From positions 8,162 through 72,161 of the forward strand of contig JAGVAH010000161.1 of the NCBI GenBank assembly GCA_020060385.1: a stretch of DNA of 64,000 bases, given 5' to 3'. Below the pieces are notes generated by a model. The model was not told where the DNA came from, made no database searches, and was given only the letters and a program-made list of their open reading frames with translations. The stretch comes from Syntrophobacterales bacterium (GTDB taxonomy: Bacteria > Desulfobacterota > Desulfobaccia > Desulfobaccales > 0-14-0-80-60-11). Below are positions 8,868 through 62,579 of this stretch, piece by piece; the stretch's first letter is position 1; the number at the start of each line of letters is the position of its first letter. Position numbers and translations under genes: made by a program.

Positions 8868-9104
8868 AGTCCCCCTTTCCTAAAGGGGGATTTAGGGGGA
8901 TTATCGAGCGCTTATCTAATCCCCCCCTGACCCCCCTTTAGAAAGGGGGGGAAAGAATATCGGCATTTGGCCCTTATTCTTGTTGCCAGGAGTGCCCCCC
9001 TCACCCTAACCCCCCACCGGGGGAGAGGGAATAAGAGCAAAGAACTATTGGCAAATTCCAGAACTTTGAACCTTGAACCTTGAACCTTGAACTCTGCCAA
9101 TCAG
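8868..9104. repeat. Cluster of intergenic palindromes plus a TTGAACC heptamer array
   Basis: Hairpins tccccc-tttcctaaa-ggggga (8870-8890), tagggggatta...taatccccccc (8893-8927) and cccccc-tttagaaa-gggggg (8931-8951). The G-rich 16-mer is at 8997-9012. TTGAACC x3 plus TTGAACT (9066-9093) is enclosed by attggca (9047-9053) and tgccaat (9095-9101). Confidence 0.75.
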
Positions 9105-14299: not shown

Positions 14300-14372
14300 G
14301 ACCGCCCTCCTCGCTTCTGGGACTAAACCGCCGCCTAACCTTCCCTCTTTTTCCCCTGTCAGCCGGGTCGCC

Positions 14373-24725: not shown

Positions 24726-25883
24726 TCAGGATCTGATTTCTTCCTTGATGGATACGGCCACCTTATATAAGAGGGTGAGAACCAGGAACCCCAGGGCCCA
24801 AACTCCCAGGGTGATGATGCCTTCGGGGATGGTGGGGGCGTATTCCGTCACTTTTTCCATGGGGTTGGGCACGAAGCCGCCGGTCATCAAGCCCAGGCCC
24901 TTGTCGATCCAGGTGGTGAGGATCACCATGCCGCACAGGGCCGCCAGGGTATTTTCATTCTGCCGCAGCTTGGGGTTGGTGAGGAGGATGGCGGTAACGG
25001 TCATGCCCACGATGGAGAACCACATGAAGGGCACCAGCCGGGCCTTGCCGTCCAGCCCCGCAAAGAGATACTTGAAGTGCAGCATATGGTCCGGAATCTG
25101 GCTGTAGAACACGGTGAAAACTTCGCAGAAGAAGAAGAACACGTTAATCAGAGTGGCATAGGTGACGATCTTGGCGATGCTTTGAATCTGCTCCCGGCCC
25201 GGGTCGAACTTGGTGTACTTGCGGACCAGGAGACAGAGCAATATCAGGAGCGAGGGGCCCGCGGCAAAGGCCGAGGAGAGAAACCTGGGGGCCATGATGG
25301 CCGTGAGCCAGTAACCCCGGCCCGGGAGACCGGCGTACAGGAACGCGGTCACCGTGTGAATGGATACGGCCCAGGGGATGGAGACGTAACTCAGGAACTT
25401 GACCCATTTGGGGGGAGGCACCGAGTGGCGCTCGCACTCCAACACGTTCCAGCCGATAAGGATGTTCAGCAGCAGGTAGCCGTTGAGGACGATGATATCC
25501 CAGAACATGACGGAGTTGGGGGTGGGGTACTTGAAAACGTTCATAACCCGGTCCGGCCGCCCCATGTCCACCAGCACGAAGGTGACGCACATGGTCACCG
25601 CGGCCACGGCCAGAAACTCACCCAGGATGGTGACCCGGCCGAAGGCCTTGTAATTATGCAGGTAGTACGGCAGGACCACCATCACCGCGGAGGCTGCGAC
25701 CCCGACCAAATAGGTGAACTGGGCGATATAAAAACCCCAGGACACGTCCCGGCCCATGCCGGTGATGCCCAGGCCGACCTTCAGCTGCTGGAGGTAGAAA
25801 AGAAACCCCAAGGCGAAAATGCCTGCCAGGACGGCCAGCAGTGTGTAGTATCTCTTGGTGCCGACTAGTGCTTTCTCAAGCAT
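24726..25883 (-). CDS. dsrP: DsrP (NrfD/PsrC-family integral membrane quinol-interacting subunit)
   Basis: 385 aa and highly hydrophobic with multiple helices. It is the last gene of an M-K-J-O-P ordered cluster. Confidence 0.88.
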   Translation of the reverse strand: MLEKALVGTKRYYTLLAVLAGIFALGFLFYLQQLKVGLGITGMGRDVSWGFYIAQFTYLVGVAASAVMVVLPYYLHNYKAFGRVTILGEFLAVAAVTMCVTFVLVDMGRPDRVMNVFKYPTPNSVMFWDIIVLNGYLLLNILIGWNVLECERHSVPPPKWVKFLSYVSIPWAVSIHTVTAFLYAGLPGRGYWLTAIMAPRFLSSAFAAGPSLLILLCLLVRKYTKFDPGREQIQSIAKIVTYATLINVFFFFCEVFTVFYSQIPDHMLHFKYLFAGLDGKARLVPFMWFSIVGMTVTAILLTNPKLRQNENTLAALCGMVILTTWIDKGLGLMTGGFVPNPMEKVTEYAPTIPEGIITLGVWALGFLVLTLLYKVAVSIKEEIRS

Positions 25884-25891
25884 GACCTACC

Positions 25892-26701
25892 TCACACGAT
25901 ATAGTAGACTTGCGGGTTCGTACCGAGATGGACTTTGCGGCGAATGCTGAAATATTTCTGCAACATTCTCCTCACTTGGGACTTTTCATCATTCAGATCG
26001 CCGAAAATCAGGGTCCCGCCGGAGGCCTCCGCACACGCGGGCGCCAGACCCTGGGCCAGACGCTCGGCGCAGAAGGTGCACTTTTCCACCACCCCGATTT
26101 CCCGGGTGGGATACCCCGGATAGGTGTCCTTGATGTAAGGTCTGGGGTCTCTCCAGTTGAAGCTCCGGGCGCCGAAGGGACATCCCGCCATGCAGAAGCG
26201 GCAGCCGATGCAGCGGTGCATGTCCATATTGACGATGCCGTCATCTCGCCGGAAGGTGGCCTTGGTGGGGCACACCCGCACACAGGGAGGGTTGTCGCAA
26301 TGATTGCAGAGCAGGAGAAAGGCCATCTGTTTGACCTTGTCCGGCAGGTTGGTCTGGTCTTCCACAAAGGCGTTATGGTAATGCTCGGTCCAGATCCACT
26401 TGACCTCATAACGGTTGGCGATCTCAGGATCAAGTTTATTCTTAGGATCATTGGGGTTCTTGAAGTCCGGGACATTATGAACCCGGTTGCAGGCGTTGAT
26501 GCATTTTTGGGCGGTGGCTTCGTCCATTTTCTGCATGTTCACCACCATGGCCCAGCGTTTGCCTGACAGGGCTCCCGCTTCGGGCTTGAGGGCTGCTTCC
26601 ACCTGGCCCGGACGCAGCAGTTCAAAGGCCCCTTTGCCGCCCAGCCCCAATAACGCCGCCAGTCCAGAAATGCGGATGAATTCTCTTCTATCGATACCCA
26701 T
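25892..26701 (-). CDS. dsrO: DsrO (periplasmic Tat-exported 4Fe-4S ferredoxin-like subunit)
   Basis: I prefer the start at the ATG rc 26699-26701 (MGIDRREFIRISGLAALLGLGG, twin-arginine signal), which overlaps the dsrJ stop as ATGA. Cluster motifs are CNHCDNPPCVRVCP, CIGCRFCMAGCP and CTFCAERL. Confidence 0.88.
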   Translation of the reverse strand: MGIDRREFIRISGLAALLGLGGKGAFELLRPGQVEAALKPEAGALSGKRWAMVVNMQKMDEATAQKCINACNRVHNVPDFKNPNDPKNKLDPEIANRYEVKWIWTEHYHNAFVEDQTNLPDKVKQMAFLLLCNHCDNPPCVRVCPTKATFRRDDGIVNMDMHRCIGCRFCMAGCPFGARSFNWRDPRPYIKDTYPGYPTREIGVVEKCTFCAERLAQGLAPACAEASGGTLIFGDLNDEKSQVRRMLQKYFSIRRKVHLGTNPQVYYIV

Positions 26702-27195
26702 CACTTCGCCTCCGCCAGCTTTTTGCCTTCCTGGAGATGACAACCAAAACAATTGGGCACCACCGCCACATAGTTGTGACATTGGTCACAGAATTTCTCC
26801 TTGTTGGAGTGGCAGTCCAGGCACGTGTTGGTAAGGCTGGCAAGGAATTTTCTACCATCAGGAGAAACAAATTCCCGAACTTCCGGTGCGCCCTTTTCAT
26901 CGCTGCGGACCACGTTGTCCCGCCAGTCCACGAGCATCTGCATGTGGTTGGCCCGCATCCACTCCGTGGGCATGATGCACTTGCGGTCTTTCTCCGCGAT
27001 CTTCTTGATGACCGGAGTATCCAGCTGCCGCTCCGGCGGGGGAATGGTTTTCCCCACGTTGGGCAAGAAAGGCAGGGCCACCATGGCGAGGAAGATGATC
27101 AGCCCGGCGAGGATATATTTGCCGTCGTAGAACTTCTTCTCCACCTGGGGACGCGGGGCAAAGGCCCCGAATTCATTTTTGTATTTGTCGTCCAT
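26701..27195 (-). CDS. dsrJ: DsrJ (membrane-anchored trihaem cytochrome c)
   Basis: Three CxxCH motifs: CLDCH, CDQCH and CFGCH. There is one N-terminal TM helix. The ATG at 27195 (MDDKYKNEF) has GGAGGAAGG upstream and sits 1 nt after the dsrK stop. The ORF-track start at 27216 is less well supported. Confidence 0.88.
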   Translation of the reverse strand: MDDKYKNEFGAFAPRPQVEKKFYDGKYILAGLIIFLAMVALPFLPNVGKTIPPPERQLDTPVIKKIAEKDRKCIMPTEWMRANHMQMLVDWRDNVVRSDEKGAPEVREFVSPDGRKFLASLTNTCLDCHSNKEKFCDQCHNYVAVVPNCFGCHLQEGKKLAEAK

Positions 27196-27196
27196 A

Positions 27197-28843
27197 TTAT
27201 TCGCCTTCCTCCGCATCTTCCTCCGCGGCTTCCCCGAATCCCTCCAGGTCGCGATCGCGGAGATCGGTGGTGCGCTCTATCTCATCAGGGAAGATCAGGG
27301 CGTTGCCCACCATTTCGGTGATGCCCGTGACCTGCATTTCCGGCACCCAGTATTCCAGCAGGGTGGGCAGGGTGGCCCGGTCCAGGGCGCAGATGCAGCC
27401 CAGATGGTTCACCCCGTATTGTTCGTAAACCCAACGCACGGCATTGGCCCGGGGCAGGCCCCCTTGCATGCGCAGCTCCATGTTTTCACTGGCGTTGATG
27501 CCGCTGGAGCTGCCGCAGCAGAAGGTCTTTTCCCGGATGGTGTTGGGGGGCATTTCCACAAAGTGCCCCTCAGGCAACACGTTGTTGATAATGTAGCGGG
27601 GCTCCTCGAAGATCCCCATCCCCCGGGCGGTGTTGCAGGAATCGTGGAAGGTCAGTTTGATGTGGGCGTTGCGCTGGGGATCCAGGTTGAGTTTGCCGTT
27701 CTTGATGAGGTCCGCGGTGAATTCGGAGATGTGCACCATTTTGTGGATCTTGGCGTTTTCAAAGCGGGTGCCGGTGATGGGGGATACCGGCTCCTCCAGG
27801 AAGTTCACCGGCTCCCCCCAATAGGTGGGCATGTACTGGTTGCACACCCGCCACATATGGCCGCACTCGCCCCCCAGGATCCACTTCACTCCCAGGCGCT
27901 TGGCCTCCGCGTAGATCTTGGAGTTCAGACGCTTGCCCATCTCGTGGGAGATGAACCAGCCGAAGTTGCCCCCCTCCGCGGCGTAGGTGCTGAAGGTGTA
28001 GTCCAGCCCGATATATTCGAACAAGAGGAGGTAGCCCATCAGGGTGAAGCTGCCGGGGTCCGCGAAGTAGTCGCCGGAAGGCGTCACAAAGAGGACCTCC
28101 GCGCCTTTGCGGTTATAAGAGGGGGTGGTGGTGATGCCGGTGATGCGCTCATTTTCCTCGGCCAAAAAGTCGATCATGTCCTTGAAGGCCTGGGGGGTGG
28201 CGCCGATGTGGCTGCCCTTGTCGTAGCATTGGGCCACGGAAGCCATGGCCCAGTCGATGTTCAGGCCCACGGAGGCCAGCAATTCCCGGCCCAAAAGCGT
28301 CATCTCCGCCATGTCGATGCCGTAAGGACAGAACAGCGAACACCGCCGGCAAATGGTGCACTGGTATAGATAAAAGAACCATTCCTTAATGACGTCTTCG
28401 CTTAAGTCCCGGGCCCCGGCGATCTCTCCCAGAACCCGCCCGATCTTCTTGAAGTAACGGCGGTAGACCGATCTCAGCAGTTCGGCCCGGAGCACCGGCA
28501 TGTTCTTGGGATCCCCGGTGCCCAGGAAGAAGTGGCATTTATCCGCGCAGGCGCCGCAGCGCACGCAGATATCGAAAAAGAGCTTCAGGGAACGGAAGCG
28601 GTCGAGCCGGTCCTCCATGCCTTGTAAGACGATCTCCTGCCAATTGTCAGGCAGACCCCACTCGTTGTCGGGAATCGACCGGGCTTGAGGGTAGGGGTAG
28701 CCGATCCACTCCATCCACTTGGGGGCCGCGGGGTTACAATAAGTGCCCGGCCGGAAATCCGGTTTGACGTCCATCCACCCTTTAGCCGGCGGCTGGTAGC
28801 TGATTCCAGGCAGTAGTTCTGAGGGTTTTGGAACCTTAGCCAT
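27197..28843 (-). CDS. dsrK: DsrK (HdrD-like catalytic FeS subunit with CCG domains)
   Basis: 548 aa with motifs CVRCGACADKCHF and CTICRRCSLFCPYG. CCG-type Cys are present (FHDSCN, TFCCGSS). AAGGAG RBS. Confidence 0.9.
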   Translation of the reverse strand: MAKVPKPSELLPGISYQPPAKGWMDVKPDFRPGTYCNPAAPKWMEWIGYPYPQARSIPDNEWGLPDNWQEIVLQGMEDRLDRFRSLKLFFDICVRCGACADKCHFFLGTGDPKNMPVLRAELLRSVYRRYFKKIGRVLGEIAGARDLSEDVIKEWFFYLYQCTICRRCSLFCPYGIDMAEMTLLGRELLASVGLNIDWAMASVAQCYDKGSHIGATPQAFKDMIDFLAEENERITGITTTPSYNRKGAEVLFVTPSGDYFADPGSFTLMGYLLLFEYIGLDYTFSTYAAEGGNFGWFISHEMGKRLNSKIYAEAKRLGVKWILGGECGHMWRVCNQYMPTYWGEPVNFLEEPVSPITGTRFENAKIHKMVHISEFTADLIKNGKLNLDPQRNAHIKLTFHDSCNTARGMGIFEEPRYIINNVLPEGHFVEMPPNTIREKTFCCGSSSGINASENMELRMQGGLPRANAVRWVYEQYGVNHLGCICALDRATLPTLLEYWVPEMQVTGITEMVGNALIFPDEIERTTDLRDRDLEGFGEAAEEDAEEGE

Positions 28844-28847
28844 AAAA

Positions 28848-29882
28848 TTATGACTCCTTTTCGACCGGGATGTCGGCCTCGATCATGGCTTCCCTGAATT
28901 TGTCTTCATATTCCAGATACGGGGTAAATTTCACCGGATAGTTCCAGGGGTTGACGTGCAGGACCCAACGGTTGTTGGCCACCATGTTTCTGCTGGGGCT
29001 CAAGAATACTCCCGGCGCGTGCATCAGTTTGCTGAAGGGGAAATAGGCGAAGAGGACGCACACCAGGAAGAGATGCACATAGAAGATGGGGCCAATGCCC
29101 GCAGGCACCACGGGGTGGAGGGTGACCAGACCCAGGGCCAGTTGCTTCACCGCCACGATGTCCACCTTGTAAACATAGCGCATGAGGATGCCGGAAATGC
29201 CGATTCCCAGGATCAGGAACAGGGGGAAGTAATCCGCGGCCAGGGAGATATAGCGCAGAGTGGGATTGGTGATCCTCCGGGCCAGAAGATAGAAGAGGGC
29301 CACCACCAGAATCACGCCGCTCAGGTAGACCGCGGGCACGAAAAACTGGAAGAAGCCGTCCATGTGTTCCAGTAACTGGATGGGCATGGGCACCGGCTCG
29401 GTGAAGAACCGCAGGTGCCGCAGGACAACCACCAGAAAAGCGTAGTGGAAGGCGATGGCCCCCAGCCACAGCCACTTGTAGGACCAGTGGATCAACCGGG
29501 CCCCTTCGGGATTGTCCGGGTCCTTGCGCAACTCGGTCCGCAGGTTCCTAAAGAGGCTGCGGAAGGCCAGGATCTCCAGGGCCATGCGGCCCAGCAGGTA
29601 CTTGAAGGTGTCGGGGTTGTCCAGTTTATCGTCCAGGTCCCGTTTGATCCAGGGCAGGGTCCGGTTCTGGCCGGCGGTGGTGGGAATACGGAAAGGTACC
29701 GGGGAACGGGCCCACTGGATGAGGCGGTAAACCAGCCCCTCCACAAAGATGAGAGCGGCCAGATAGGGGACGACGACCCCGAAGAGGATCTGTAACTTGG
29801 TCTGGGCGCCGACGTAGGCCACCACCACCAGTCCCAGCACTGCAGCTAAGGCCACTAAGAAATGACGTTTAAAAAAATCCAT
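28848..29882 (-). CDS. dsrM: DsrM (NarI-like dihaem cytochrome b membrane subunit)
   Basis: 344 aa with multiple TM helices carrying conserved His. It is the first gene of the dsrMKJOP order. GAGGTG RBS. Confidence 0.88.
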   Translation of the reverse strand: MDFFKRHFLVALAAVLGLVVVAYVGAQTKLQILFGVVVPYLAALIFVEGLVYRLIQWARSPVPFRIPTTAGQNRTLPWIKRDLDDKLDNPDTFKYLLGRMALEILAFRSLFRNLRTELRKDPDNPEGARLIHWSYKWLWLGAIAFHYAFLVVVLRHLRFFTEPVPMPIQLLEHMDGFFQFFVPAVYLSGVILVVALFYLLARRITNPTLRYISLAADYFPLFLILGIGISGILMRYVYKVDIVAVKQLALGLVTLHPVVPAGIGPIFYVHLFLVCVLFAYFPFSKLMHAPGVFLSPSRNMVANNRWVLHVNPWNYPVKFTPYLEYEDKFREAMIEADIPVEKES

Positions 29883-38418: not shown

Positions 38419-39690
38419 ATGAAGAAACTGGTAATTTTGGGCAGCGGCACCGGCGGCACCATTATCGCCGCCAAGATGCGGGCATTATTATCCGAAACCC
38501 AATGGGAAATCACCATCATCGACCGGGACTGGCAGCACCACTACCAACCCGGATGGCTCTTCATTCCCTTTGGTATTTACACCGCCCAGGACTGCGTCAA
38601 ACCCAAGGTCAAATATATCCCGCCAGGGGTCAAATTTGTGCTGGATGAAATAACCGCCATCGATCCGGCCCAAAAGCAGGTAAAGACCAAGAGGGACACC
38701 TACCCCTATGATTGGCTGGTGATTGCCACCGGCTGCCGCCTCGTCCCCGAAGAAGTGGAGGGCATGATGGAAGGCTGGGGGCGGGATATCCACAATTTTT
38801 ATTCCCAGGACGGCGCGGTGGCCCTGTATGAGAAACTGAAATACTTCGAGAAGGGCCGGGTGGTCATTAATATCGCCGAATTGCCCTTCAAGTGTCCGGT
38901 AGCCCCCCTGGAATTCGCCTTTATGGCCGACTGGTATTTCACGGTCAACGGGGTGCGGCCCCATATCGAGATCGAGCTGGTGACCCCCCTGGGCGCGGCC
39001 TTCACCAAACCGGTGGCCGCCGGGATCTTGGGCCATATCTGCGAGCAGAAAAATATCAAGGTGACCACCAACTACCAGATCGCCCAGGTGAATGCAGGCA
39101 AAAAAACCATCGTCTCCTACGGGGGGGAGGAGGTCCCTTATGATCTCCTGGTGGCCATCCCTCCGAATTTCGGGGCCCAGTGCCTCATCGACAGCGGCCT
39201 GGGGGACCCCATGGGTTACATGGATACCGACCACCACACCTTGCAGGCCAAGAACTACGACCATGTCTATGTGATTGGCGATGCCACCAACGTTCCCACT
39301 TCCAAGGCCGGGGCCGTGGCCCACTATGAGGCCGACACCATCGCCGCCAACCTGCAGCGGGAGATCGACGGCCAGCCGCCCCGGCCCGATTACGACGGCC
39401 ACGCCACCTGACTGGTGGTCACCGGTTACGAGAAGGGGTCCCTTCTCGACTTCAACTACAAAATTGAGCCCCTGCCGGGGAAATTCCCCTTTCCGGGCCT
39501 CGGCCCCATGGACCTCCTGAAGGAAAGCTTTGCCAATTATGTCGCCAAGATGATGTTCCGGTGGGTCTATTACAACCTGATGCTCAAGGGCAGCCATCTG
39601 CCCCTGGAAACCCAGTTTGTCATGGCCGGGAAGGTGCGGGGTATTTTGTCCCCGGATATCGAGATGCCCCTCAGGAGGAAACGGCCATGA
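38419..39690 (+). CDS. SQR-like NAD(P)/FAD-dependent oxidoreductase, read through an in-frame TGA (39409-39411). Selenocysteine candidate, or a disrupted gene.
   Basis: The ATG at 38419 (MKKLVILGSGTGGTIIAAKM, FAD GxGxxG) follows AAGGAAGG. ORF-track pieces 38305..39411 and 39415..39690 are in the same frame, separated only by TGA plus CTG. The second piece (..TGYEKGSLLDFNYKIEPLPGKFPFPGLGP..) has no RBS or ATG of its own. The downstream gene is ATGA-coupled to the end of the second piece. Confidence 0.7.
39429..39448 (+). promoter_or_regulatory. Candidate bacterial SECIS-like hairpin
   Basis: CGAGAAGG-GGUC-CCUUCUCG forms a perfect 8-bp stem. It starts 18 nt after the UGA, and the apical loop GGUC lies at +29..+32 from the U of UGA. 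Confidence 0.45.
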
Positions 39691-40286
39691 CCAACGAGGA
39701 ACTGCTATTGGAAAGGCTGGCCCGCATCGAGGAAAGGCTGGAAGGGGTCGCCCGGGTGGAGCAGCAGCTTGAGGAGTGGGCCAGACCTTGGGAATCCCTG
39801 AGTGACCTGGGCCGGGATCTCTCCATCCTCATGGACCCGGCCGCCAGGAGGTTGACCGAAGAACTGGTGGAAGTGGAAATAGGCTTCCAGTTGGAGGACT
39901 TCTTTGCTCTCCTCAAACGGCTCCTTCCCAGTCTCAGATACCTCACCTGGGGCATGGAACAGTTGGAAAACCTCATCGACTGGTGGGCCGATATGGAGCC
40001 GGTGTTGAAAGTCGCGGTGCCCAAGATGATCGACCGGTTGGATGTCCTGGAGCAGCAGCGGGTATTCAGTAGTTTTGCCAGGATCTTTTCGGTGGAGATG
40101 CTCCAGTTCATGGGCAGGCTTTCGGAGGTGGCCCTGGCCGCGCGTCTGGAGGAGGCCAAACCCCGGGGGCCCTTGGGACTGCTCTGGCAGATGCGGAGCC
40201 CGGAATGCCGCCGGGGGCTGGGGGTCCTCCTGGAGCTGACCCGGGCCCTGGGCCGGATGCAGCCGGAGCCCGCAACGGCCCCTTAG
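39687..40286 (+). CDS. DUF1641-like protein
   Basis: MTNEELLLERLARIEERLEG..., with C-terminal ...GPLGLLWQMRSPECRRGLGVLLELTRALG matching my memory of the DUF1641 C-terminal motif. Its ATG overlaps the upstream stop (ATGA). This family commonly follows SQR-like flavoprotein genes. Confidence 0.72.
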   Translation: MTNEELLLERLARIEERLEGVARVEQQLEEWARPWESLSDLGRDLSILMDPAARRLTEELVEVEIGFQLEDFFALLKRLLPSLRYLTWGMEQLENLIDWWADMEPVLKVAVPKMIDRLDVLEQQRVFSSFARIFSVEMLQFMGRLSEVALAARLEEAKPRGPLGLLWQMRSPECRRGLGVLLELTRALGRMQPEPATAP

Positions 40287-41194: not shown

Positions 41195-41316
41195 ATACCA
41201 TTTCGCAATCAAAAGACATTGAACTGTAGGGGCGAATCTTGTATTCGCCCTGTGCGGGCGGGCGAACCCAAGGTTCGCTCCTACAAGAAAATTGCCGTTA
41301 GATTGCGACTTGGTAT
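41195..41316. mobile_element. MITE-like element, shorter/degenerate copy
   Basis: The right TIR gccgttagattgcgacttggtat (41294-41316) is near-identical to 60756-60778. The left TIR ataccatttcgcaatcaaaagac (41195-41217) is degenerate. Internal hairpins are GGGCGAA-tcttgta-TTCGCCC and GGCGAACC-caa-GGTTCGC. Confidence 0.6.
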
Positions 41317-43748: not shown

Positions 43749-44909
43749 ATGCCAAGTTTAAAGAGGTTCAAGACGAATTACCCTGGCGTGTTCTTTATCG
43801 AGGGGACCTCCCCGACGACAGGCAAGCCAGAGAAGATTTTTTATATCCGCTATCGCAAGGCCGGGAAGATGATTGAGGAAAAGGCGGGGCGGCAATTCGA
43901 TGATGACATGACCCCAGCCCGGGCCTCCTTAATCCGGGGAGAGCGGGCGCAAGGAAAGAAACCGACCCGACAAGAGGCCAGGGAGCAACGGAAAGCGGCT
44001 AAACAGGCAGAGGCCGCACGATGGACAATCAATCGCCTGTGGCAGGAATACCGGGACCGAAGACCAGGGCTCAAGGGCTTAATCACCGATGAAAACCGCT
44101 ATCAAAACCACATCAAGCCTATCCTGGGGGACAGGGAGCCCCACACTCTTACCCCGTTTGACGTGGACCGGCTACGCCTTAAACTTCTCAAAACCCGCAA
44201 GCCCGGCACGGTTAAAAACGTCCTGGAACTCTTGCGCCGCCTGGTGAATTTCGCCGCTAAGAAGCACCTCTGCCCTGTTCCTTCCTTCATTATCGAAATG
44301 CCCAAGGTAAATAATCTGAAGACTGAAGACCTTAATCCGGATCAGCTGGCCGCCCTTCTGGAGGCCATGGACCGGGACCCTAATTTGCAGGCCGCCAATT
44401 TCATGAAAATGGCCCTGTTCACTGGCATGAGGCGGGGAGAACTCTTCCGGCTGCAATGGCAGGACGTGGATTTTGAGCGGGGCTTTATTCATCTGCGCAC
44501 CCCTAAGGGCGGCCAGGATCAGAAGATACCTTTGAACCAAGCGGCCCGGGAACTCCTGGAGGCGCACCCCAGGACTGACGGCAGCCGTTATGTCTTCCCC
44601 GGGCGCGGGGGACGGCAACGCACAGACATCAATAAGCAGGTGACACGCATTAAAGAGGCGGGGGGTCTGCCTAGGGACTTCCGGGCGCTCCACGGCCTGC
44701 GGCACGTTTACGCGTCCATGCTGGCCTCTTCCGGCCAGGTGGACCTTTACACCCTGCAAAAGCTCCTGACCCACAAGAGCGCGGCCATGACCCAGAGATA
44801 CGCCCACCTGCGGGATGACGCCCTGCGCCGGGCCTCGGACCTGGCCGGGGACCTGTTAGGGCAGGTGGTCAACGGCAAACAGCGGAAAATCGCCAACTTG
44901 GAGGAATAG
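43749..44909 (+). CDS. int: Tyrosine recombinase / phage-type integrase
   Basis: 386 aa. The C-terminal catalytic region has ...MRRGELFRLQW..., ...HGLRHVYASML... and ...LLTHKSAAMTQRYAHL (R..HxxR..Y pattern). GGAAGGAGG RBS. Confidence 0.92.
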   Translation: MPSLKRFKTNYPGVFFIEGTSPTTGKPEKIFYIRYRKAGKMIEEKAGRQFDDDMTPARASLIRGERAQGKKPTRQEAREQRKAAKQAEAARWTINRLWQEYRDRRPGLKGLITDENRYQNHIKPILGDREPHTLTPFDVDRLRLKLLKTRKPGTVKNVLELLRRLVNFAAKKHLCPVPSFIIEMPKVNNLKTEDLNPDQLAALLEAMDRDPNLQAANFMKMALFTGMRRGELFRLQWQDVDFERGFIHLRTPKGGQDQKIPLNQAARELLEAHPRTDGSRYVFPGRGGRQRTDINKQVTRIKEAGGLPRDFRALHGLRHVYASMLASSGQVDLYTLQKLLTHKSAAMTQRYAHLRDDALRRASDLAGDLLGQVVNGKQRKIANLEE

Positions 44910-44913
44910 AGAG

Positions 44914-45147
44914 ATGGAACCGGGAAACCTGGAAAACCTGGTGGAGAAGGTGAAGGCTATCGCCCACGGCCCTAATGCCGACCTGTTGGAAAAATTCATT
45001 GACTTGCTTTATGGGCAGGAGATGGAGGAAGAATATTTCTCCCCAGAAGACTTGGCCGCCATTGAGGAAGGCATGAAAGCAAGTCTGAGCGGGGATCGTT
45101 CGCAATTCATCCCTTGGGAAGAATATAAAGCCAGGCGGGGCTTATGA
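44914..45147 (+). CDS. Putative antitoxin of the RelE/ParE module
   Basis: 77 aa and acidic. It overlaps the toxin start by 4 nt (ATGA). It is a paralogue of 45417..45635. Confidence 0.65.
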   Translation: MEPGNLENLVEKVKAIAHGPNADLLEKFIDLLYGQEMEEEYFSPEDLAAIEEGMKASLSGDRSQFIPWEEYKARRGL

Positions 45148-45404
45148 TCTACCGGATAGAACTTCACCGGGAAGCGGAAAAGACCCTTGACCGACTGGAC
45201 CGGACTACCGCCAGGCGCATCGAAGCCAAGATAGACGAACTGATCCAGGACCCTTTCAATCCCCGCCTGTCCCGCCAAATGGAGACGGATCCAGAAGCCC
45301 GGTACTCCCGGGTGGGAGACTGGCGGATCATCTACCGAGTGAACGAGGCGGCGGGAACCCTGGACATTGCGGCTATCCGGCCCCGGAGTTCGGCCTACAA
45401 ATAG
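45144..45404 (+). CDS. RelE/ParE-family type II toxin
   Basis: 86 aa reading MIYRIELHREAEKTLDRLDRTTARRIEAKIDELIQDP...RYSRVGDWRIIYRVNEAAGTLDIAAIRPRSSAY, which fits the RelE/ParE pattern (YRLRVGDYRIIY-like). Confidence 0.85.
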   Translation: MIYRIELHREAEKTLDRLDRTTARRIEAKIDELIQDPFNPRLSRQMETDPEARYSRVGDWRIIYRVNEAAGTLDIAAIRPRSSAYK

Positions 45405-45416
45405 AGGAGGCGGTTT

Positions 45417-45635
45417 ATGGACCCCCCGCTTATTGACAAAGACCTATTGGCCATGATCGAAGCTATTAACCAAGGCCCCAACCGGGATGCTTTGAGAAAG
45501 TTCGTGGAATTTCTTTATGAAGAACAAGAGGAACTTACCCCAGAGGAATGGCGGGCCATCCGGGAGGGTCAGGAAGACGCCAGGCAGGGCCGGGTGATTA
45601 CTCTGAAAGAGTATGAAAAGGCCCGGGGCCTGTGA
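45417..45635 (+). CDS. Second, orphan antitoxin-like paralogue
   Basis: 72 aa. GPNRDALRKFVEFLYEEQEELTPEEWRAIREG...LKEYEKARGL compares with GPNADLLEKFIDLLYGQEMEEEYFSPEDLAAIEEG...WEEYKARRGL in 44914..45147. No toxin ORF follows. Confidence 0.6.
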   Translation: MDPPLIDKDLLAMIEAINQGPNRDALRKFVEFLYEEQEELTPEEWRAIREGQEDARQGRVITLKEYEKARGL

Positions 45636-45737
45636 GCTTCCTGAGTGACCTTTGCCAAGAGGAAGTATGGCAAACCAGTGGCTATCTGAATCTAAGGGAC
45701 TAGAAGATAGCTGATCGGGAAGGGAATAAGGAAAGCC

Positions 45738-45875
45738 ATGGAATATTGGCTGACAGCGGCTGGCGGCTTTCTTGCCGGGGCCGGCCTGATTTTCTGGGTG
45801 CGATTCGATTGCCTGAGAAAAATGCAACGGCTAATTGATATGCACAGGCGTCTCTGTCCTTGGCGGAGACAGTGA
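45738..45875 (+). CDS. Possible 45-aa single-TM peptide
   Basis: Below the ORF-track cutoff. AAGGAAAG lies 3 nt upstream of the ATG. The sequence is MEYWLTAAGGFLAGAGLIFWVRFDCLRKMQRLIDMHRRLCPWRRQ, one hydrophobic helix plus a basic tail. Confidence 0.3.
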   Translation: MEYWLTAAGGFLAGAGLIFWVRFDCLRKMQRLIDMHRRLCPWRRQ

Positions 45876-45981
45876 ACACGGCTATCCGGCCCCTGGGGGC
45901 CAGAAGATAGCGGGCCAGCCTGGGTGCAGCACCACCTGGCCGGCCCTACCACCACACAAACCTGCAAAGGAGGTTCATGTC

Positions 45982-46539
45982 ATGGCTGATGAACATTTTA
46001 CCACAGGTTCTGAAGAGAATAAACCTCAGGACCCATCTGCTGAGGCCATAACCCAGGTCTGCGAAGAATGCGGTGAGGAAATGAAAGCCCGGCCCGGCAA
46101 GACAATCGGCTATGTCTGTGAAAAAATACAGATGAGAGCGGAAAAGGAAGAAGAAATCAAGAAGCAGGAGGAAGCAATCAAGCAGAAGATTGTTATGGAA
46201 AACACTTACTCCATAGGTCTCGTGGATCTTCTCTTAGATACCACCCATAATCTTCAATCGTTTTGCAAGATACTCGACATCGGCGGCCCGGAATGTGAGG
46301 AATATGATCAAATTTTTCAGGTTCTCAAGCCCCTCATAGAGTGCCAGCACGCAACCCTTGAAAAAATAGGGGTATTTATTTTTAATGCTATTGGAGATAT
46401 TCAAATCTTGGTTTGCAACGAGGTCATGCAAGTTGATGGCAAATCCTATAGGGAGGGGGAATTCTATAAAGCCGAATTGAAACCAAAAGAGGCCCCACCA
46501 TTACCAAGACTATATAAACTGGCCGAATCTCCGGCTTAG
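45982..46539 (+). CDS. Hypothetical protein (island cargo), N-terminal CxxC...C element
   Basis: AAGGAGG lies 8 nt upstream of the ATG at 45982. 185 aa, AT-richer than the host genes. It has VCEECGEEM...YVCEK followed by a Lys/Glu-rich helix. No family recognised. Confidence 0.65.
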   Translation: MADEHFTTGSEENKPQDPSAEAITQVCEECGEEMKARPGKTIGYVCEKIQMRAEKEEEIKKQEEAIKQKIVMENTYSIGLVDLLLDTTHNLQSFCKILDIGGPECEEYDQIFQVLKPLIECQHATLEKIGVFIFNAIGDIQILVCNEVMQVDGKSYREGEFYKAELKPKEAPPLPRLYKLAESPA

Positions 46540-46648
46540 ACTAACTTAAAAAGTTCCAAAGATAGGGAGCGCGACCCGACAAGGGGGGGATTTCCTGACC
46601 CTGCCTTCCCCGGATTCCCCCCCAGGACCGCGACAGGAGGCGGTTCAC

Positions 46649-47368
46649 ATGCCCCACGATAAGCCTCATCGCACCATGGGCGATATCCTCAAAGAGATTT
46701 CAATCTCCCGCAACGCTTCAAAAGAGAAGTATTCTATTAAGGTTCCCAAAATTAAAATAGCGGAACCTGAAGACCTTTCCCCTGAACAGCTAAGTATTAT
46801 CAATAATGGGTTAAAAAATGGAGTCCTTTATCTGTTTCTTGATCATGATAATTCTGCTTCAACAATATCAGCGCCTTTAACTACTAAACAGCAGGATATT
46901 ATCAAACTCCTAAATAACACTAATAAGAGTCTTAAAGAATACGATGGATTAAATCATAAAGCGTGTAAACTATTAAAAGACGATAAACGATATTGTGAGC
47001 TAAGAGAGGAATACCTTGAATTGATGAAGGAAGCTGTTCGTGCTGGGCTACTTTGGCATCATTTAGTTCATGAGTTCATTTACACCTATAAAGCACTTGG
47101 TGATAAGGAGATTTTAAGAAAAATAAAGCGAGGTTGGGAAACAGATGTTCAACGCCCTCTTACGATAACTGACTTTTCGTTTATAAATCATCTCGAAAAA
47201 ATAGCAGAGTACAGAATAGAAGGTAAGTCATGGCCCCAGATTCGCCAGATTTTGATGAAGCACAGAATTATCAAAAAAATAACCTGGCAGGCGCTACGTA
47301 TGAAATTTAAAAAAGCCTGGGAAGAGGCATTCAAAGAGGTCAATAAAAAGCCTCCTCCCATTCCTTGA
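46649..47368 (+). CDS. Hypothetical protein (island cargo), possible C-terminal HTH
   Basis: 239 aa with a GGAGG RBS, in the most AT-rich stretch of the island. The C-terminal ...GKSWPQIRQILMKHRIIKKITWQALRMKFKKAW is HTH-like by eye. Confidence 0.68.
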   Translation: MPHDKPHRTMGDILKEISISRNASKEKYSIKVPKIKIAEPEDLSPEQLSIINNGLKNGVLYLFLDHDNSASTISAPLTTKQQDIIKLLNNTNKSLKEYDGLNHKACKLLKDDKRYCELREEYLELMKEAVRAGLLWHHLVHEFIYTYKALGDKEILRKIKRGWETDVQRPLTITDFSFINHLEKIAEYRIEGKSWPQIRQILMKHRIIKKITWQALRMKFKKAWEEAFKEVNKKPPPIP

Positions 47369-47553
47369 CCTTCATTTCCACCGAGATCCCCCCCTCCTTC
47401 CGGACTGTGAACAGCCCAAAAATTTTCTCGCCCTTTAACAGCAACACTCTCCGGTAAAAAAAGCACCACAACCATTTTGGCAGAAAAAAATTATTACCTG
47501 AATTTTCTGGTATGCCTGAGAAAGATCAGGCACATACAGGAGGTTTTAGTTTC

Positions 47554-47805
47554 ATGGAAACGGATCGTTATCTAACAACGGCAGAGGTGGTGCAAATTAC
47601 TGGGCGGGCATATCAAACTTGGGCGAATGAGAGATTTAACGGGCTTGGAGTGCCCTATTACAAGGTAGGGAGGAGCATACGTTATAAGTTGAGTGACATT
47701 ATCTCGTTTATGGAAAAACATCGGGTAGACCCCGAGGCCCGGTTATGTTCAGCAAATGTAGCGGGGGAAGGGGCTGACCAAAACGGCGACCATGTTGGCC
47801 GGTAG
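47554..47805 (+). CDS. AlpA/excisionase-like HTH DNA-binding protein
   Basis: AGGAGG lies 10 nt upstream of the ATG at 47554. METDRYLTTAEVVQITGRAYQTWANERFNGLGVPYYKVGRSIRYKLSDIISFME fits the MerR-superfamily excisionase/AlpA pattern. Confidence 0.65.
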   Translation: METDRYLTTAEVVQITGRAYQTWANERFNGLGVPYYKVGRSIRYKLSDIISFMEKHRVDPEARLCSANVAGEGADQNGDHVGR

Positions 47806-47816
47806 GGGAAGGCACC

Positions 47817-50144
47817 ATGGCCAGCATTGATACCATCCGCCTATCCCTTTCTTGTGGGCAGCCTGGGTGCGCCTGCGGGCAACCCCGGGGGCATGTCCAT
47901 TGCCCAGCGCATGATCCGATGCGCACTGATAAAACCCCTTCCCTCTCCCTTTCCGTAAGCGGGGCCGGCAAGATTCTGTTTCACTGTTTTAACGGTTGTT
48001 CCCAAGACCAGGTACATTCTGCCCTTGTAGGCATGGGGCTTTGGCCTTCTTCCGTCAAAGGGAAAAATTATAAATATAAAAAAAAGAAGCAAAATAAGGC
48101 TTCCGGTAAAGGGCGCAACACTGCAACACCCACCCAAAAGGCTAATAAAAAAAGAAAGTTGGGTGTTGTATCCACCACTGCAACACCGGGCAACAGTCCT
48201 GCGGCATCTCCCGGTCTTGGCCTAGCAGAACTGGCCGAAGCAAAGAAGCTCCCAGTTGATTTCCTGGCTGGTCAGGGTTTGACCGACAAAAAAGTGCAGG
48301 ATTCTCTTTGCGTAGTCATCCCCTACATGAACGAGGCCGGTGAAGTGGCAGCGGTGCGCTATCGCCATTGCCTGGAGGTAGGACAGCGCTTCTCCTGGCG
48401 CAAGGGCAATAAGGTCTTGCTTTATGGTCTCTGGCGGCTGTCAGAGGTCAGGAAGGCCGGTTGGGTGTTGCTGGTGGAAGGGGAAAGCGACTGCTGGACC
48501 GGCTGGCTTTTGCGTATTCCCGCTCTGGGGTTGCCGGGAAAAACCACCTGGCGGCCGGAGTGGGCCGAACACCTAAAGGGATTGAAGGTCTACCTCTGGC
48601 AGGAACCGGACGCGACAGAACTACCCGGGAAGGTCCTGCGAGACATCCCTCACCTGAAAGTTATTCAGTCCCCACCGGGATTCAAGGACCTGAACGAGGC
48701 GCACCTGAAGGGAGAAAATGTCTCGGCTTTGCTGAACAAACTCAAGGCGGCTGCGGTCCCGGCTGAGACATTGCGCCAAGCAGAGCGGGCAGCCAAGGCC
48801 AAGGAACTTGAAAAGGCTGCTTGGCCGATTCTGTCCGCCCGGGACCCTCTCGACCATGTGCGCCAAGCTGTTCTCTCTCAAGGGTATGGCGGCGACGTAA
48901 AGCAGCCCATCATCGTCTATCTGGCGGCCACGTCGCGGCTCCTGGCGATGAGGATTGGAGCCATGCCGGTACACCTGTTGCTGGTGGCTCAATCCACTGC
49001 CGGGAAATCTTATCTGCTGATGGTCATCTTAAAGCTTTTGCCTGGTGAAGCATACCATTCCATTGACGCCGGTTCCCCCCGGGCGCTCATTTACGACGAC
49101 GCTGACTTGCAGCACCGGGTCCTTGTTTTCGGGGAAGCCGATTCTTTACCTGCTGGCGAAGATAACGCGGGGGCCAGTGCTGTTCGTAATTTGCTTCAAG
49201 ACCACTGCCTTCATTACGACGTGACCGATAAAAATTCCGAAACCGGCCAATTTATGGTCAGGAAGATTCGCAAGCCTGGCCCTACCGTGTTGATTACTAC
49301 CTCCACGAGGCGATTAGGACATCAGTTTGATACGCGGGTCTTCTCTTTACCAGTGGCGGATACCCCGGAAAAGATTGGAGCGGCGCTTATGGCGCAAGCC
49401 GAACTCGAACTTAAGGGCGACATGGGCGACATGGTTTCCCATAATGCACTCATCGCCTTTCAAGGTTATCTCCAAGCCCTGGCCCCCTGGAATGTCGTGG
49501 TTCCATTTGCCAAGGAGCTTGCCGCCGAAATTAAACGCACGGCCACGGCCACCCGCATCTTGAGAGACTTTGCCCGGCTCGTTTCCTTGATTAAATCCGT
49601 GGCAATCATCCGTCACCGACATCGCCAGAGGGATGACGCTGGGAGGATTATCGCTCAGATTGATGATTACTCTACAGTTTTTAAATTGGTGGGGCCGATG
49701 TACGAGGCCACCTTGACAGGGGCCACAAAAGAACTGCGGGTCACGGTTGAGACCGTGGCAAAGATGCTGAAGAAACAAGAAAGCGTCACAGCCACCACCC
49801 TTGCGGTGCGTCTGGGCATACATCCAAGCACTGCATCACGCCGCGTGACATCGGCCATTAATATGAGGTGGTTAATCAACCGGGAAACTAGGCAGGGTTT
49901 GCCTTGGGCCTTGGAGATAGGGGAACCACTACCGGAGCCTCAAGGCTTGCCCGCCCCCGAGATTTTAACTGCTGCAACCGTTGCACCATTGCATTCACCC
50001 CAAAAAACCGCGCAACACTCACAACCTACCGAAAGTGTTGGAGATATCGCCAACCGTTGCACTGTTGCAGGCGTTACCGGAACTCTGACATGTCCAGTAC
50101 AGAAAGACGGTCAGGAGGAGTGCATTAAGGAGGTGGTACTGTGA
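47817..50144 (+). CDS. Primase-helicase-like replication protein (Zn-finger + Toprim + P-loop NTPase)
   Basis: 775 aa with N-terminal Cys/His cluster [10 protein letters not shown]...HCPAHD...FHCFNGC and a basic linker. The Toprim-like acidic motif is [12 protein letters not shown]. Walker A is [11 protein letters not shown] and a Walker B-like motif is [10 protein letters not shown]. Confidence 0.78.
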
Positions 50145-50443
50145 TGAACCCCGGCATTGCGGCGGTGAAGAAGCTGGTAGCCATGGGCTACCGACCCCAT
50201 CTGGAAGGCGACAACATTCGCTTGCGGCATGAAGGCCAGGGGGCCCCGGCCCCTGCCCAGGTTTCCCCCCTCCTGGACGTGGTTAAAGCTCACAAAGACG
50301 AGGTGCGCCACTTCCTCAAATACTACTGCCCCCGATGCGGCGGCGCGGCCACCTGCCCGGATTACGAGGGGCGGCCCTTGTGCCTATCGTGTGATTGGCA
50401 GGAGCTAACCCGCCTTTATCCAGCTTTGAGAGTGAAGCATTGA
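50144..50443 (+). CDS. Hypothetical protein (island)
   Basis: AAGGAGGTGG lies 7 nt upstream and the ATG overlaps the primase stop. It contains CPRCGG...[15 protein letters not shown] (a 4-Cys zinc-ribbon-like element). Confidence 0.6.
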
Positions 50444-50486
50444 TTACCGTCAACACTGAGGGTCTATTCTATTAGGGAGGCAGACC

Positions 50487-51485
50487 ATGCCTGAAGATGT
50501 GCAAGAACCACAACCAATTTCACCTGAAGGAATAAAAGAAAATCAACCCTCCACGTCTAGCTTAGCGGATGTGGCCCGGAAATGGCTGCAAATCCGGGAC
50601 GCCATTCATCAAGCCACAGCGCGGGGGCTAGGCCGCTGGTTGGCGGGCCCAGGCAATCCACGCAGAATTTTAAATCCGTTCCTCGGACTAGGTGGCCCCG
50701 GGCCAGGTAAAGCTTACGGTCCCGGGGGATTGAGGGGCGTGGGGGCGATGGGGGGCAGGTTAAGAGTCACCGAGGATGAAGGCTCCCGCCCCATGGTTTC
50801 TTTACGCGAGGTGGCCTTGCGTAACCCCCTAATCCAGGAAAGCAAAATTAAGGTGGAAGACCTGCCTTTCGGGGTACCTGGACAAATCAACTATCAAGAC
50901 CCGCTACGACCCACAATTACACTGGCCCCGCTTGTTAGCCCTTATACCGACCCCGGCGCCACCGCAGTCCATGAGCTGCATGGTCATGCCATGCATGGCC
51001 CAGCCGCTTGGCGGGCGAGGGACCTGGCGGAAATGGAAAGAGTTATTAGGCCCCAAGCAGAGGGCATGGCGGAAGGAGTGGTTAAGAATTTGTATGGGGC
51101 CATAGCACCTCCATCGGCCTATGATCAAATTTACGGCGGTGATCAGAATTATCAGATAGCTAAGGCCCGGGGTGAATTACTGCCCCAGTATATCGCTGAA
51201 ACCGGTAAAGTCTCCCCTTGGCAGGTCGTCCAAAATGTTATCTTTGGCCGGCCACCTGCATCTCCGGAACCAAAGCCGGAAACCCCTGTAGCCCAGGAAC
51301 CCCCGAAAAATCAACCACCCTCTCCGAGAGGTGCTCTCCGGGCCTTCGGGATCAAGCCCAGGCAACCTGAAGTCCTTGGGCCTGTAGGTGGATCATCTTC
51401 CGGCGATTTGAAACGGAAGGCATTCGGGATAAGGCCCACGTCCGCTGAAAGGTTGGAGGAAATGTTTGGCAGGATGTGGGATTGA
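50487..51485 (+). CDS. Hypothetical protein (island)
   Basis: 332 aa with a GGGAGG RBS. It contains HELHGHAMHG (an HExxH-like motif). No family recognised. Confidence 0.6.
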   Translation: MPEDVQEPQPISPEGIKENQPSTSSLADVARKWLQIRDAIHQATARGLGRWLAGPGNPRRILNPFLGLGGPGPGKAYGPGGLRGVGAMGGRLRVTEDEGSRPMVSLREVALRNPLIQESKIKVEDLPFGVPGQINYQDPLRPTITLAPLVSPYTDPGATAVHELHGHAMHGPAAWRARDLAEMERVIRPQAEGMAEGVVKNLYGAIAPPSAYDQIYGGDQNYQIAKARGELLPQYIAETGKVSPWQVVQNVIFGRPPASPEPKPETPVAQEPPKNQPPSPRGALRAFGIKPRQPEVLGPVGGSSSGDLKRKAFGIRPTSAERLEEMFGRMWD

Positions 51486-51520
51486 TCTTTTAGCTTCTTC
51501 AATAAGGAGCTTCGAAGCCA

Positions 51521-52072
51521 ATGACCAGCAAAGACGAAAACACTGTTAATGGCAGGAAGAAGCCGGTTTTTCTTTCTGATCTCACCAAGCGCTTCAGGAT
51601 TGTCTTGGAAGAAGGGTCTGAGCGTGGGGCCGATCATCTGGGTTTCTGCCAACTAATACCTTGCAAGGGGTTTAGGCCCGGGCCAGGGCAATCAGGTCCG
51701 TTCATTGGGCTCCATTCAGAGGCCCCGCTGGTCTTAATGCTTTACACAGACAGGGTCCAGAACGCCAAAAACATATGGAACGCTATCGAGCAGCGTCCTG
51801 GGACCCGGGCTGATTTCGCTCTTGACGGCGAAGCGTTAATCTTCTTTGGCCCCGAACTTTTAAAGATAGTGGCGGAGATGGCCGGTGGACGGAAGCGGCG
51901 GCAGCTTTCAGCAGAGCACCGGGCAAAATTGGTGGAGGCCGGGAAAGCGGGTAGGGCGGCCTTAAAAAAATGGCGGGCGCAAAGGGTACAGAGTCAAAAT
52001 TCGACCCCAAATGAGGCTCCAGGACCCCAGGCAATGGAAAACGATGTTGGGATTGGGGGGAGCGTTTTTTGA
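51521..52072 (+). CDS. Hypothetical protein (island)
   Basis: 183 aa with an AAGGAG RBS. No family recognised. Confidence 0.55.
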   Translation: MTSKDENTVNGRKKPVFLSDLTKRFRIVLEEGSERGADHLGFCQLIPCKGFRPGPGQSGPFIGLHSEAPLVLMLYTDRVQNAKNIWNAIEQRPGTRADFALDGEALIFFGPELLKIVAEMAGGRKRRQLSAEHRAKLVEAGKAGRAALKKWRAQRVQSQNSTPNEAPGPQAMENDVGIGGSVF

Positions 52073-60627: not shown

Positions 60628-60778
60628 ATACCAAGTCGCAATCTAACGGCATTTTTTTTGTAGGGGCGAATCTTGTATTCGCCCTTTGTGAGCGGACGAA
60701 CCCATGTGTCCGCCCTAAATAGGGCGCACACGCGGGTGCGCCCCGACTATTCCTCGCCATTAGATTGCGACTTGGTAT
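60628..60778. mobile_element. MITE-like element (151 bp) with 23-bp terminal inverted repeats and three internal hairpins
   Basis: The left TIR is ataccaagtcgcaatctaacggc (60628-60650). The right TIR gccattagattgcgacttggtat (60756-60778) matches 22 of 23 positions as reverse complement. Internal hairpins are GGGCGAA-tcttgta-TTCGCCC, GCGGAC-N10-GTCCGC and GGGCGCAC-acgcgg-GTGCGCCC. Confidence 0.7.
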
Positions 60779-62039: not shown

Positions 62040-62062
62040 AGATGGCGGAAAGGGAACAAAGG

Positions 62063-62275
62063 ATGAATTGCTGGGAATTTAAAAAATGCGGGCGGGAGAC
62101 AGACTGCCCGGCTTATCCTGATCACGGCACGGAATGCGCCCGGGTGACGGGGACTCTCTATGAGGGGAAGGTGCAGGGAATTTTTGGCATGAAACTGACC
62201 ACCTGCATGCATTGTGATTATTACCGCAGCCCCCATTACCTCTTGGAATTAAGGACTGTCTCCAGAAACCCCTGA
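62063..62275 (+). CDS. Small Cys-rich 'NCWEF' protein, copy 1 (two-CW-like domain)
   Basis: 70 aa reading MNCWEFKKCGRETDCPAYPDHGTECARVTGTLYEGKVQGIFGMKLTTCMHCDYY... It is a tandem paralogue of 62376..62579 and shares the leader ggcgg.aaagggaacaaaggATG. The Cys of the GTLCGG motif is replaced by Tyr in this copy. Confidence 0.75.
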   Translation: MNCWEFKKCGRETDCPAYPDHGTECARVTGTLYEGKVQGIFGMKLTTCMHCDYYRSPHYLLELRTVSRNP

Positions 62276-62375
62276 ACTTACCGTAAAGGGATACTCTACG
62301 GCGTTTTGCGAGATAACCCCATTAACTTGGGCCGTATAATAACAGGCCCCCATTAGGCGGCAAAGGGAACAAAGG

Positions 62376-62579
62376 ATGAATTGCTGGGAATTTAAAAAGT
62401 GCGGATGGGAAAAAGACTGCCCGGCTTATCCTGATCACGGCACGGAATGCGCCCGGGTGGCCGGGACTCTTTGTGGCGGGCAGGTGCAGGGAATCTTTGC
62501 CCTTAAACTGCTTACCTGCATGGAATGCGATTTCTATCAGAGTCCCCACAACAAGACCCGTAATAGTTGGAATTCATAA
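62376..62579 (+). CDS. Small Cys-rich 'NCWEF' protein, copy 2 (two-CW-like domain)
   Basis: 67 aa reading MNCWEFKKCGWEKDCPAYPDHGTECARVAGTLCGGQVQGIFALKLLTCMECDFYQSPH..., with 7 Cys. A stop lies in frame 36 nt upstream, so the start is fixed at MNCWEF. Confidence 0.78.
   Translation: MNCWEFKKCGWEKDCPAYPDHGTECARVAGTLCGGQVQGIFALKLLTCMECDFYQSPHNKTRNSWNS

Follow-up and report, generated by a model that had tools for sequence, protein, structure and literature searches.

We analyzed a 64,000-nucleotide stretch of a Syntrophobacterales genome (assembly GCA_020060385.1, contig JAGVAH010000161.1), in the following called the window, which carries at positions 38419 to 39690 of its forward strand a gene for a type III sulfide:quinone reductase (SQR) with an in-frame UGA. 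Sequence comparison makes it very probable that this UGA, codon 331, is decoded as selenocysteine (Sec) within a single enzyme of 423 residues. The gene is a member of a known and curated selenoprotein family; its designation as a selenoprotein gene is correct and not new. Each refutation test that could be run on the sequences came out in favor of selenocysteine. Positions given below refer to the window unless they are accompanied by a locus label (L0xx).

The frame starting with ATG at 38419 reached a TGA stop at 39688-39690, and the gene is complete with 423 codons plus the stop. The only interruption was the TGA at 39409-39411, which separates two pieces of the same frame as described in an earlier reading made from this DNA alone (the sequence-only reading). 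That reading had also found neither a ribosome binding site nor an ATG for the second piece, and indeed this piece begins with GTG at 39415 and no purine-rich Shine-Dalgarno sequence is present upstream. The 92 codons past the UGA (39412-39687, + strand) are part of the enzyme and align with the C-terminal region of human SQOR. The joined length of 423 amino acids, proposed to be typical of the family, lies within the range of the full-length homologues (401-430 amino acids). A DUF1641 gene follows at 39687-40286 on the same strand (Pfam PF07849, E 8e-10). Its start codon overlaps the SQR stop as ATGA, and because of this overlap it is probably translationally coupled to the SQR gene, which means to the end of the second piece, as had been suggested. 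Among the related loci treated below, DUF1641 was directly downstream in 41 of 42 with a Sec-type gene and in all 35 with a Cys-type gene; in the Sec clade, its start and the stop of the second piece usually overlap as ATGA. The same DNA is present in a public metagenome (JGI 3300007354, contig Ga0104761_1000232, L081), where it was annotated as a 330-amino acid Pyr_redox_2 protein (10001-10993) and an unannotated orphan of 91 amino acids (10997-11272).

The protein encoded by the joined frame matched the NCBIfam model NF049943 (type III SQR, selenoprotein subtype) over profile positions 1-405 of 406 with 666.8 bits at a curated cutoff of 525 (E 1e-200), a score which is by itself no proof of the Sec state, as NCBI gives the same name to the Cys homologues P0066 and P0120. 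Pfam returned Pyr_redox_2 (E 1.9e-17) and a weak FCSD_central match, and a GSGTGG motif is present at the N-terminus. Together with the homology to solved SQRs and FCSD, these features define an FAD-binding flavoprotein of the disulfide reductase fold. The best solved relatives were structures of human SQOR (E about 1e-54, residues 4-391), to which the protein could be aligned as far as chain residue 393. This alignment paired human Cys201 (in VKCAGAP) with Cys159, encoded by TGT at 38893-38895 (+), and human Cys379 with codon 331, at a chain numbering offset of 40. For type III SQRs from Desulfovibrio marinus and from cable bacteria, the canonical catalytic pair has been described as Cys159 and Cys331 (or Cys339) (D. 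marinus: bioRxiv 10.1101/2021.03.23.436689). The numbering of Cys159 and codon 331 is identical to that in D. marinus CS1 and corresponds to Cys159 and Cys339 of the cable bacteria. The label type III is based on the NCBIfam name and on this matching cysteine numbering, while the closest solved structure belongs to a type II enzyme. Judged from the alignments, Cys159 and codon 331 are the positions of the first and the second canonical catalytic cysteine in type III SQRs; the first residue of the pair is present, and the second is UGA, predicted to be read as Sec instead of Cys. The sequence-only reading had assigned the gene to an SQR-like flavoprotein and the TGA column to the C-terminal active-site cysteine of SQRs, and both assignments stood.

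The column of the TGA was then compared among relatives. Of the 120 best database homologues, 111 were full length, and all 111 carried Cys at this column within the motif DGH[SA][TN]-C-[FY][IV]. The remaining nine were the closest relatives (84-87% identity); they had been called as proteins of 330 amino acids ending in ...YDGHAT and are therefore cut at the same TGA. A scan of genomic loci, with one genome per species, gave 80 loci, 78 of which were informative and two cut by contig ends. All 80 belonged to Thermodesulfobacteriota (Desulfobaccales, Syntrophales, Syntrophobacterales, and Desulfovibrionales). The aligned codon was TGA in 43, TGC in 28, and TGT in 7 loci. Thus, the conserved redox cysteine which the sequence-only reading had named for homologues was found in every full-length protein and, as TGC or TGT, in 35 loci.

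A single stop codon in an otherwise intact gene looks like a fresh nonsense mutation or a base-call error, and metagenome annotation calls two genes, of 330 and 91 amino acids. The gene might hence be a pseudogene, or the TGA a sequencing or assembly error for TGC or TGT. However, 43 further species-level genomes, assembled independently, contained the same TGA, and a metagenome contig encodes a product 100% identical to that of the window, which excludes a sequencing error. Furthermore, among the 43 Sec-type sequences that reach a stop, the window included, the frame remained open for 92-98 codons past the TGA in 42; the exception, L041, has a 1-nt indel past the TGA. Relative to the window sequence, the 75 codons after the TGA contained 873 synonymous and 341 nonsynonymous differences, as compared to 765 and 639 in the 75 codons before it, so that the synonymous excess was stronger after the TGA than before. 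Selection on the sequence past the TGA is purifying and acts at the level of the protein. Decay of orthologous loci, which the sequence-only reading had named as an observation that would speak against its proposal, was not seen: the TGA recurs, the frame behind it is open, and the excess of synonymous changes is clear. Additionally, a hairpin invariant at the nucleotide level, described below, goes only with the TGA form. We therefore give a pseudogene or an error next to no probability.

In L041 (10991-11965), the SQR gene differs from that of L037 by 1 nt close to its end, and the C-terminal part of SQR thereby reads in frame into DUF1641. The resulting open reading frame (ORF), with 324 codons past the TGA, represents either a genuine fusion or an indel introduced by error when this metagenome-assembled genome (MAG) was assembled.

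The comparison of loci also bears on a third possibility, a split gene whose separate polypeptides of 330 and 91 residues, the latter starting at GTG 39415, assemble into the enzyme. A GTG does stand two codons past the TGA, and gene callers give an ORF of 91 amino acids there. In some relatives, however, the second codon past the TGA is GTC or CTC instead of GTG, no Shine-Dalgarno sequence precedes the GTG of the window gene, the break coincides exactly with the Cys column in all loci, and neither piece would contain the catalytic residue. A split gene is scarcely credible on these grounds.

Reassignment of UGA in the genetic code was ruled out by the normal use of TGA, which ends 16 of 30 genes in the window and is the commonest stop there. 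When in-frame TGAs were examined across the whole window, a strong coding signal on both sides was found only at 39409-39411 and at one plain gene junction; this window-wide scan for TGA-interrupted coding regions gave no second selenoprotein candidate.

Reading of the UGA as Sec would need a selenocysteine insertion sequence (SECIS), and a candidate lies directly downstream. The hairpin CGAGAAGG/GGTC/CCTTCTCG (39429-39448, +) has a perfect 8-bp stem formed by 39429-39436 and 39441-39448 and a GGUC apical loop at 39437-39440. The distance from the TGA is 17 nt to the stem and 25 nt to the loop. A block of 23 nt comprising this hairpin, TACGAGAAGGGGTCCCTTCTCGA (39427-39449, +), was identical in all 43 related TGA loci. 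Within it, codons +6 to +12 are synonymously frozen: a single codon was used at each position, with a third-position entropy of 0 among 43 unique Sec-type sequences, whereas flanking codons had third-position entropies of about 0.4-1.8. The Cys paralogues, which encode the same or a similar peptide, used two to nine codons at each of these positions. The block was invariant although the proteins of these species share only 73-94% identity with the window protein. When 23 loci were folded to a consensus, the hairpin was the sole structure (-12.6 kcal/mol), and all of its eight pairs were invariant.

The perfect GGUC hairpin had been reported by the sequence-only reading, together with the statements that its loop equals the apical loop of the E. 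coli fdhF SECIS and that its spacing is acceptable for a bacterial SECIS (bSECIS). These statements proved right. The fdhF SECIS sequence, with its apical loop GGUC, was confirmed: of 5,426 E. coli genomes, 5,419 contain it with 100% identity. Published bSECIS criteria demand a loop of 3-9 nt with a G followed by G or U within the first two positions, an upper stem of 4-16 bp, a spacing of 16-37 nt, and a minimum free energy ≤ -7.5 kcal/mol (PMC13188914). The window hairpin shows a loop of 4 nt starting with GG, a stem of 8 bp, a spacing of 25 nt, and a folding energy of -11.5 to -12.6 kcal/mol, and so agrees with all of them.

Upstream of the UGA, the codons GCC ACC (39403-39408, +), encoding Ala-Thr, were near-invariant in the Sec-type loci. 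Among 43 such loci, codon -2 was always the same and codon -1 was one of two codons (entropy 0.16), while codons further upstream varied synonymously. The invariant GCC ACC may reflect a context requirement for Sec insertion. The minimum-energy fold of the window sequence contained another 8-bp hairpin, UGACUGGU/GGUC/ACCGGUUA, at 39409-39428 with the UGA inside. It is common to the window and its closest relatives; the other loci differ in this sequence, and the consensus fold lacks the hairpin, which was therefore rejected as a part of the element.

Sec-type and Cys-type genes occur side by side. In at least 15 MAGs, the pair of SQR and DUF1641 genes is present in a Sec-type and also in a Cys-type version; examples are L005/L055, L013/L059 on the same 2.6-Mb contig, L026/L073 on the same chromosome (OY969108.1), L041/L056, L016/L054, L018/L057, and L020/L067. 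One MAG holds two Sec-type copies (L004/L012). Sec/Cys isoenzyme pairs are known for other selenoenzymes, and the MAGs with both forms resemble these. In a neighbour-joining tree, calculated without support values, the Cys-type genes L042, L044, L045, L047, L048, and L049 nested inside the Sec clade beside L038 and L043. The region corresponding to the hairpin lies about 18-40 nt past the Cys codon in these nested genes. In L048 (Desulforhabdus sp. TSK) the hairpin is kept with one change, TCC to TCT, which gives a G.U pair, and L047 has two changes. The nested subclade suggests, as far as such a tree and such remnants allow, a reversion from Sec to Cys with a decaying SECIS relic.

Several points weigh against selenocysteine at codon 331. 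Perfect 8-bp hairpins are common in the window, where 26 (about 17 distinct) were counted as compared to 8.4 in shuffled sequences; an 8-bp hairpin is thus not rare, the hairpin taken alone is weak evidence, and it is the conservation that carries weight. No covariation in favor of the hairpin structure was detected in the consensus fold of 23 loci, as the pairs never vary. Zero covariation is expected, however, because each arm of the stem also encodes conserved residues (E-K-G and S-L-L). A permissive Rfam scan of 39380-39500 gave only chance-level matches to unrelated families, and at gathering thresholds no Rfam family matched anywhere in the window. Furthermore, ARAGORN detected no tRNA-Sec in the 64 kb, no selA, selB, or selD was identified by Pfam among the 36 window ORFs, and tblastn of the window gave none either. 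The literature found on the family contains computational evidence only, and sulfide:quinone activity is known only for Cys-type relatives. In the literature searched, no data on selenium in the protein, from 75Se labelling or mass spectrometry, were present for the family.

The search for the Sec machinery also covered the related loci. ARAGORN found no tRNA-Sec in the 43 Sec-type loci. When E. coli SelA, SelB, and SelD were used as tblastn queries with the window and 81 loci, one clear selD was obtained, in L038; a weaker match with 29.5% identity occurred in L056. The selD homologue of L038 (56-862, - strand) shows 41% identity to E. coli SelD and is located 9 kb upstream of an SQR gene of the TGA type, which has the TGA and the hairpin of the window gene. 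An in-frame TGA of its own, at 835-833, takes the position of Cys17 in E. coli (...VRAAG-U-AAKIPP...), and a long stem-loop whose loop is CGGUGAAUU comes after this TGA. By its sequence, this is a Sec-containing SelD. As such a selD, with its own in-frame TGA and stem-loop, stands near a TGA-type SQR gene, we conclude that the lineage decodes Sec.

These results have to be set against programmed readthrough or termination that does not involve Sec. The hairpin might stimulate insertion of a near-cognate amino acid (e.g. Trp or Cys), or the gene might yield a 330-residue protein and a minor full-length form. UGA followed by C is a leaky termination context in E. coli, and the window UGA precedes a C; the failure to find Sec machinery within 64 kb and the missing covariation of the hairpin would also agree with this explanation. 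Against it, the position is that of a catalytic cysteine, where exchange of Cys and Sec is expected, the SelB-type GGUC loop stands at a spacing allowed for bSECIS, and the relative L038 combines the same element with a Sec-containing selD. Furthermore, a truncated protein would lose one catalytic residue and the entire C-terminal region, and the family is curated as selenoprotein. We consider readthrough without Sec quite improbable, albeit less so than a pseudogene, an error, or a split gene.

For decoding of the UGA as Sec, the following course of events is proposed. During translation, the 8-bp hairpin with its GGUC loop, 25 nt past the UGA, would act as a bacterial SECIS. SelB with its Sec-tRNA(Sec) would thereby be brought to the UGA and compete there with release factor 2. 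Sec would be inserted at position 331 and the ribosome would read on through the C-terminal 92 residues until translation ends at the ATGA overlap, where the gene of the presumed partner DUF1641 starts. In the folded enzyme, Sec331 would fill the place of the second catalytic cysteine, Cys379 of human SQOR. For human SQOR, a trisulfide Cys379-S-S-S-Cys201 has been established; Cys379 carries the persulfide which is taken by the acceptor, and its thiolate then re-forms the bridge (PMC11039317). By analogy, Sec331 would carry the outgoing sulfane sulfur and re-form a bridge with Cys159 beside the FAD. Electrons would pass from sulfide to FAD and on to the membrane quinone pool in a sulfate- or sulfite-reducing host, if catalysis runs in this direction.

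The genomic context is in line with such a host. A dsrMKJOP-like cluster at 24726-29882 (- strand) encodes an NrfD-family membrane protein, a 4Fe-4S dicluster protein, an ORF of 171 amino acids with no Pfam match, an Fe-S protein of 548 amino acids, and a nitrate-reductase-gamma-like membrane protein. From this cluster, we conclude that the host reduces sulfate or sulfite in a dissimilatory manner, in agreement with the taxonomy of the related loci.

A more far-reaching idea, drawn by analogy and in our estimation rather unlikely, is that a selenium bridge between Sec331 and Cys159 (Cys-S-S-Se-Sec or a selenenylsulfide) replaces the cysteine trisulfide and that the enzyme has a job other than sulfide detoxification. 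If this were so, the enzyme might perform fast transfer of sulfane sulfur or selenium linked to menaquinone in strict anaerobes, and the reaction might be reductive, with participation of the DUF1641 partner. In this view, the Cys paralogue present in the same genomes would be a selenium-independent backup.

Other parts of the window contain features of separate interest. A few kb downstream of the SQR operon, the region 43749-52072 (+) starts with a tyrosine integrase gene (43749-44909) followed by a ParE-toxin-like gene (from the gene calls of L081) and includes several ORFs with no Pfam match, among them one of 775 amino acids (47817-50144); this region may be an integrated mobile element. 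A sensor histidine kinase of 2,137 amino acids is encoded at 53494-59907 (+), with Cache, HAMP, and GAF domains and about nine PAS repeats that are visible in the DNA as a periodic repeat family of roughly 365 nt. A bacterial alpha-2-macroglobulin of 1,777 amino acids (9101-14434, -) adjoins a penicillin-binding protein of the PBP1C type (6468-8828, -), and the two form a usual gene pair. An intergenic element of 59 nt occurs twice (41225-41283 and 60659-60717, 83% identity) and is possibly a small dispersed repeat; an 8-bp hairpin (GGGCGAATCTTGTATTCGCCC) common to both copies stands at its start, and another may be present within it. Additionally, a sequence of 187 nt is present in two copies (62049-62235 and 62362-62548) which are 85% identical, 313 nt apart, and located where no long ORF exists.

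With respect to known systems, the closest comparison is with the published selenoproteins of the family. A 2026 review lists the family with the motif HxxU and credits a 2025 deep-Sep paper, which predicted the protein for two species of Desulfosediminicola under the designation NAD(P)/FAD-dependent oxidoreductase; the sequence in the supplement of that paper has U in ...SDGHAV-U-FIESGF.... Identity between the window protein and the published selenoprotein of D. ganghwensis amounts to 52%, and U falls in the same column of both, with H-A-T-U at codons 328-331 aligned to H-A-V-U. The published NF049943 member and the window protein are alike in matching the hidden Markov model over its full length, in carrying the motif H-x-x-U, and in coming from sulfate reducers of the Thermodesulfobacteriota. 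The window protein differs in its clade (Desulfobaccales, Syntrophales, and Syntrophobacterales) and in the peptide after Sec, which is LVVTGYEKGSLL as compared to FIESGFGKAYII in the published member; therefore, the RNA of the published member must differ in sequence at the position of the hairpin. Many Cys-type proteins, with 65-80% identity, are nearer to the window protein than is the published Sec member. According to the literature searched, the family has been predicted and never biochemically tested, and existing knowledge of the family is left unchanged by the present analysis.

The Cys-type type III SQRs of Desulfovibrio marinus CS1 and Caldivirga maquilingensis share the architecture and the Cys159/Cys331 numbering with the window protein, and DUF1641 genes also follow Cys-type genes in related loci. 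They differ by Cys at position 331 and by the absence of the SECIS hairpin. The Cys-type enzyme of D. marinus removes H2S when expressed in E. coli (bioRxiv 10.1101/2021.03.23.436689). Human mitochondrial SQOR (PDB 6OI5, 6MO6, 8DHK) is the best solved relative, and both of its catalytic cysteines align; it differs in being a eukaryotic type II enzyme with Cys where the window protein would have Sec.

The hairpin resembles the SECIS of E. coli fdhF, which is likewise a stem-loop within the coding region just past a UGA and has the identical GGUC apical loop. Its loop, however, stands 18 nt past the UGA as compared to 25 nt in the window gene, and the fdhF stem contains an unpaired base below the top three pairs, whereas the window stem is a perfect 8-bp helix and has no conserved extended lower stem. 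The window hairpin thus departs from the strict fdhF type in upper-stem bulge and spacing and agrees with it in the loop; from its sequence, we conclude that it is an element which would work like the fdhF SECIS and is not a copy of it. As regards annotation, split gene calls and the many truncated entries of the closest relatives lose the active site and the C-terminal region of the enzyme. As regards the biology of these organisms, selenium would stand in place of sulfur at the very SQR residue that carries the outgoing persulfide, and this in sulfate reducers, which themselves produce sulfide.

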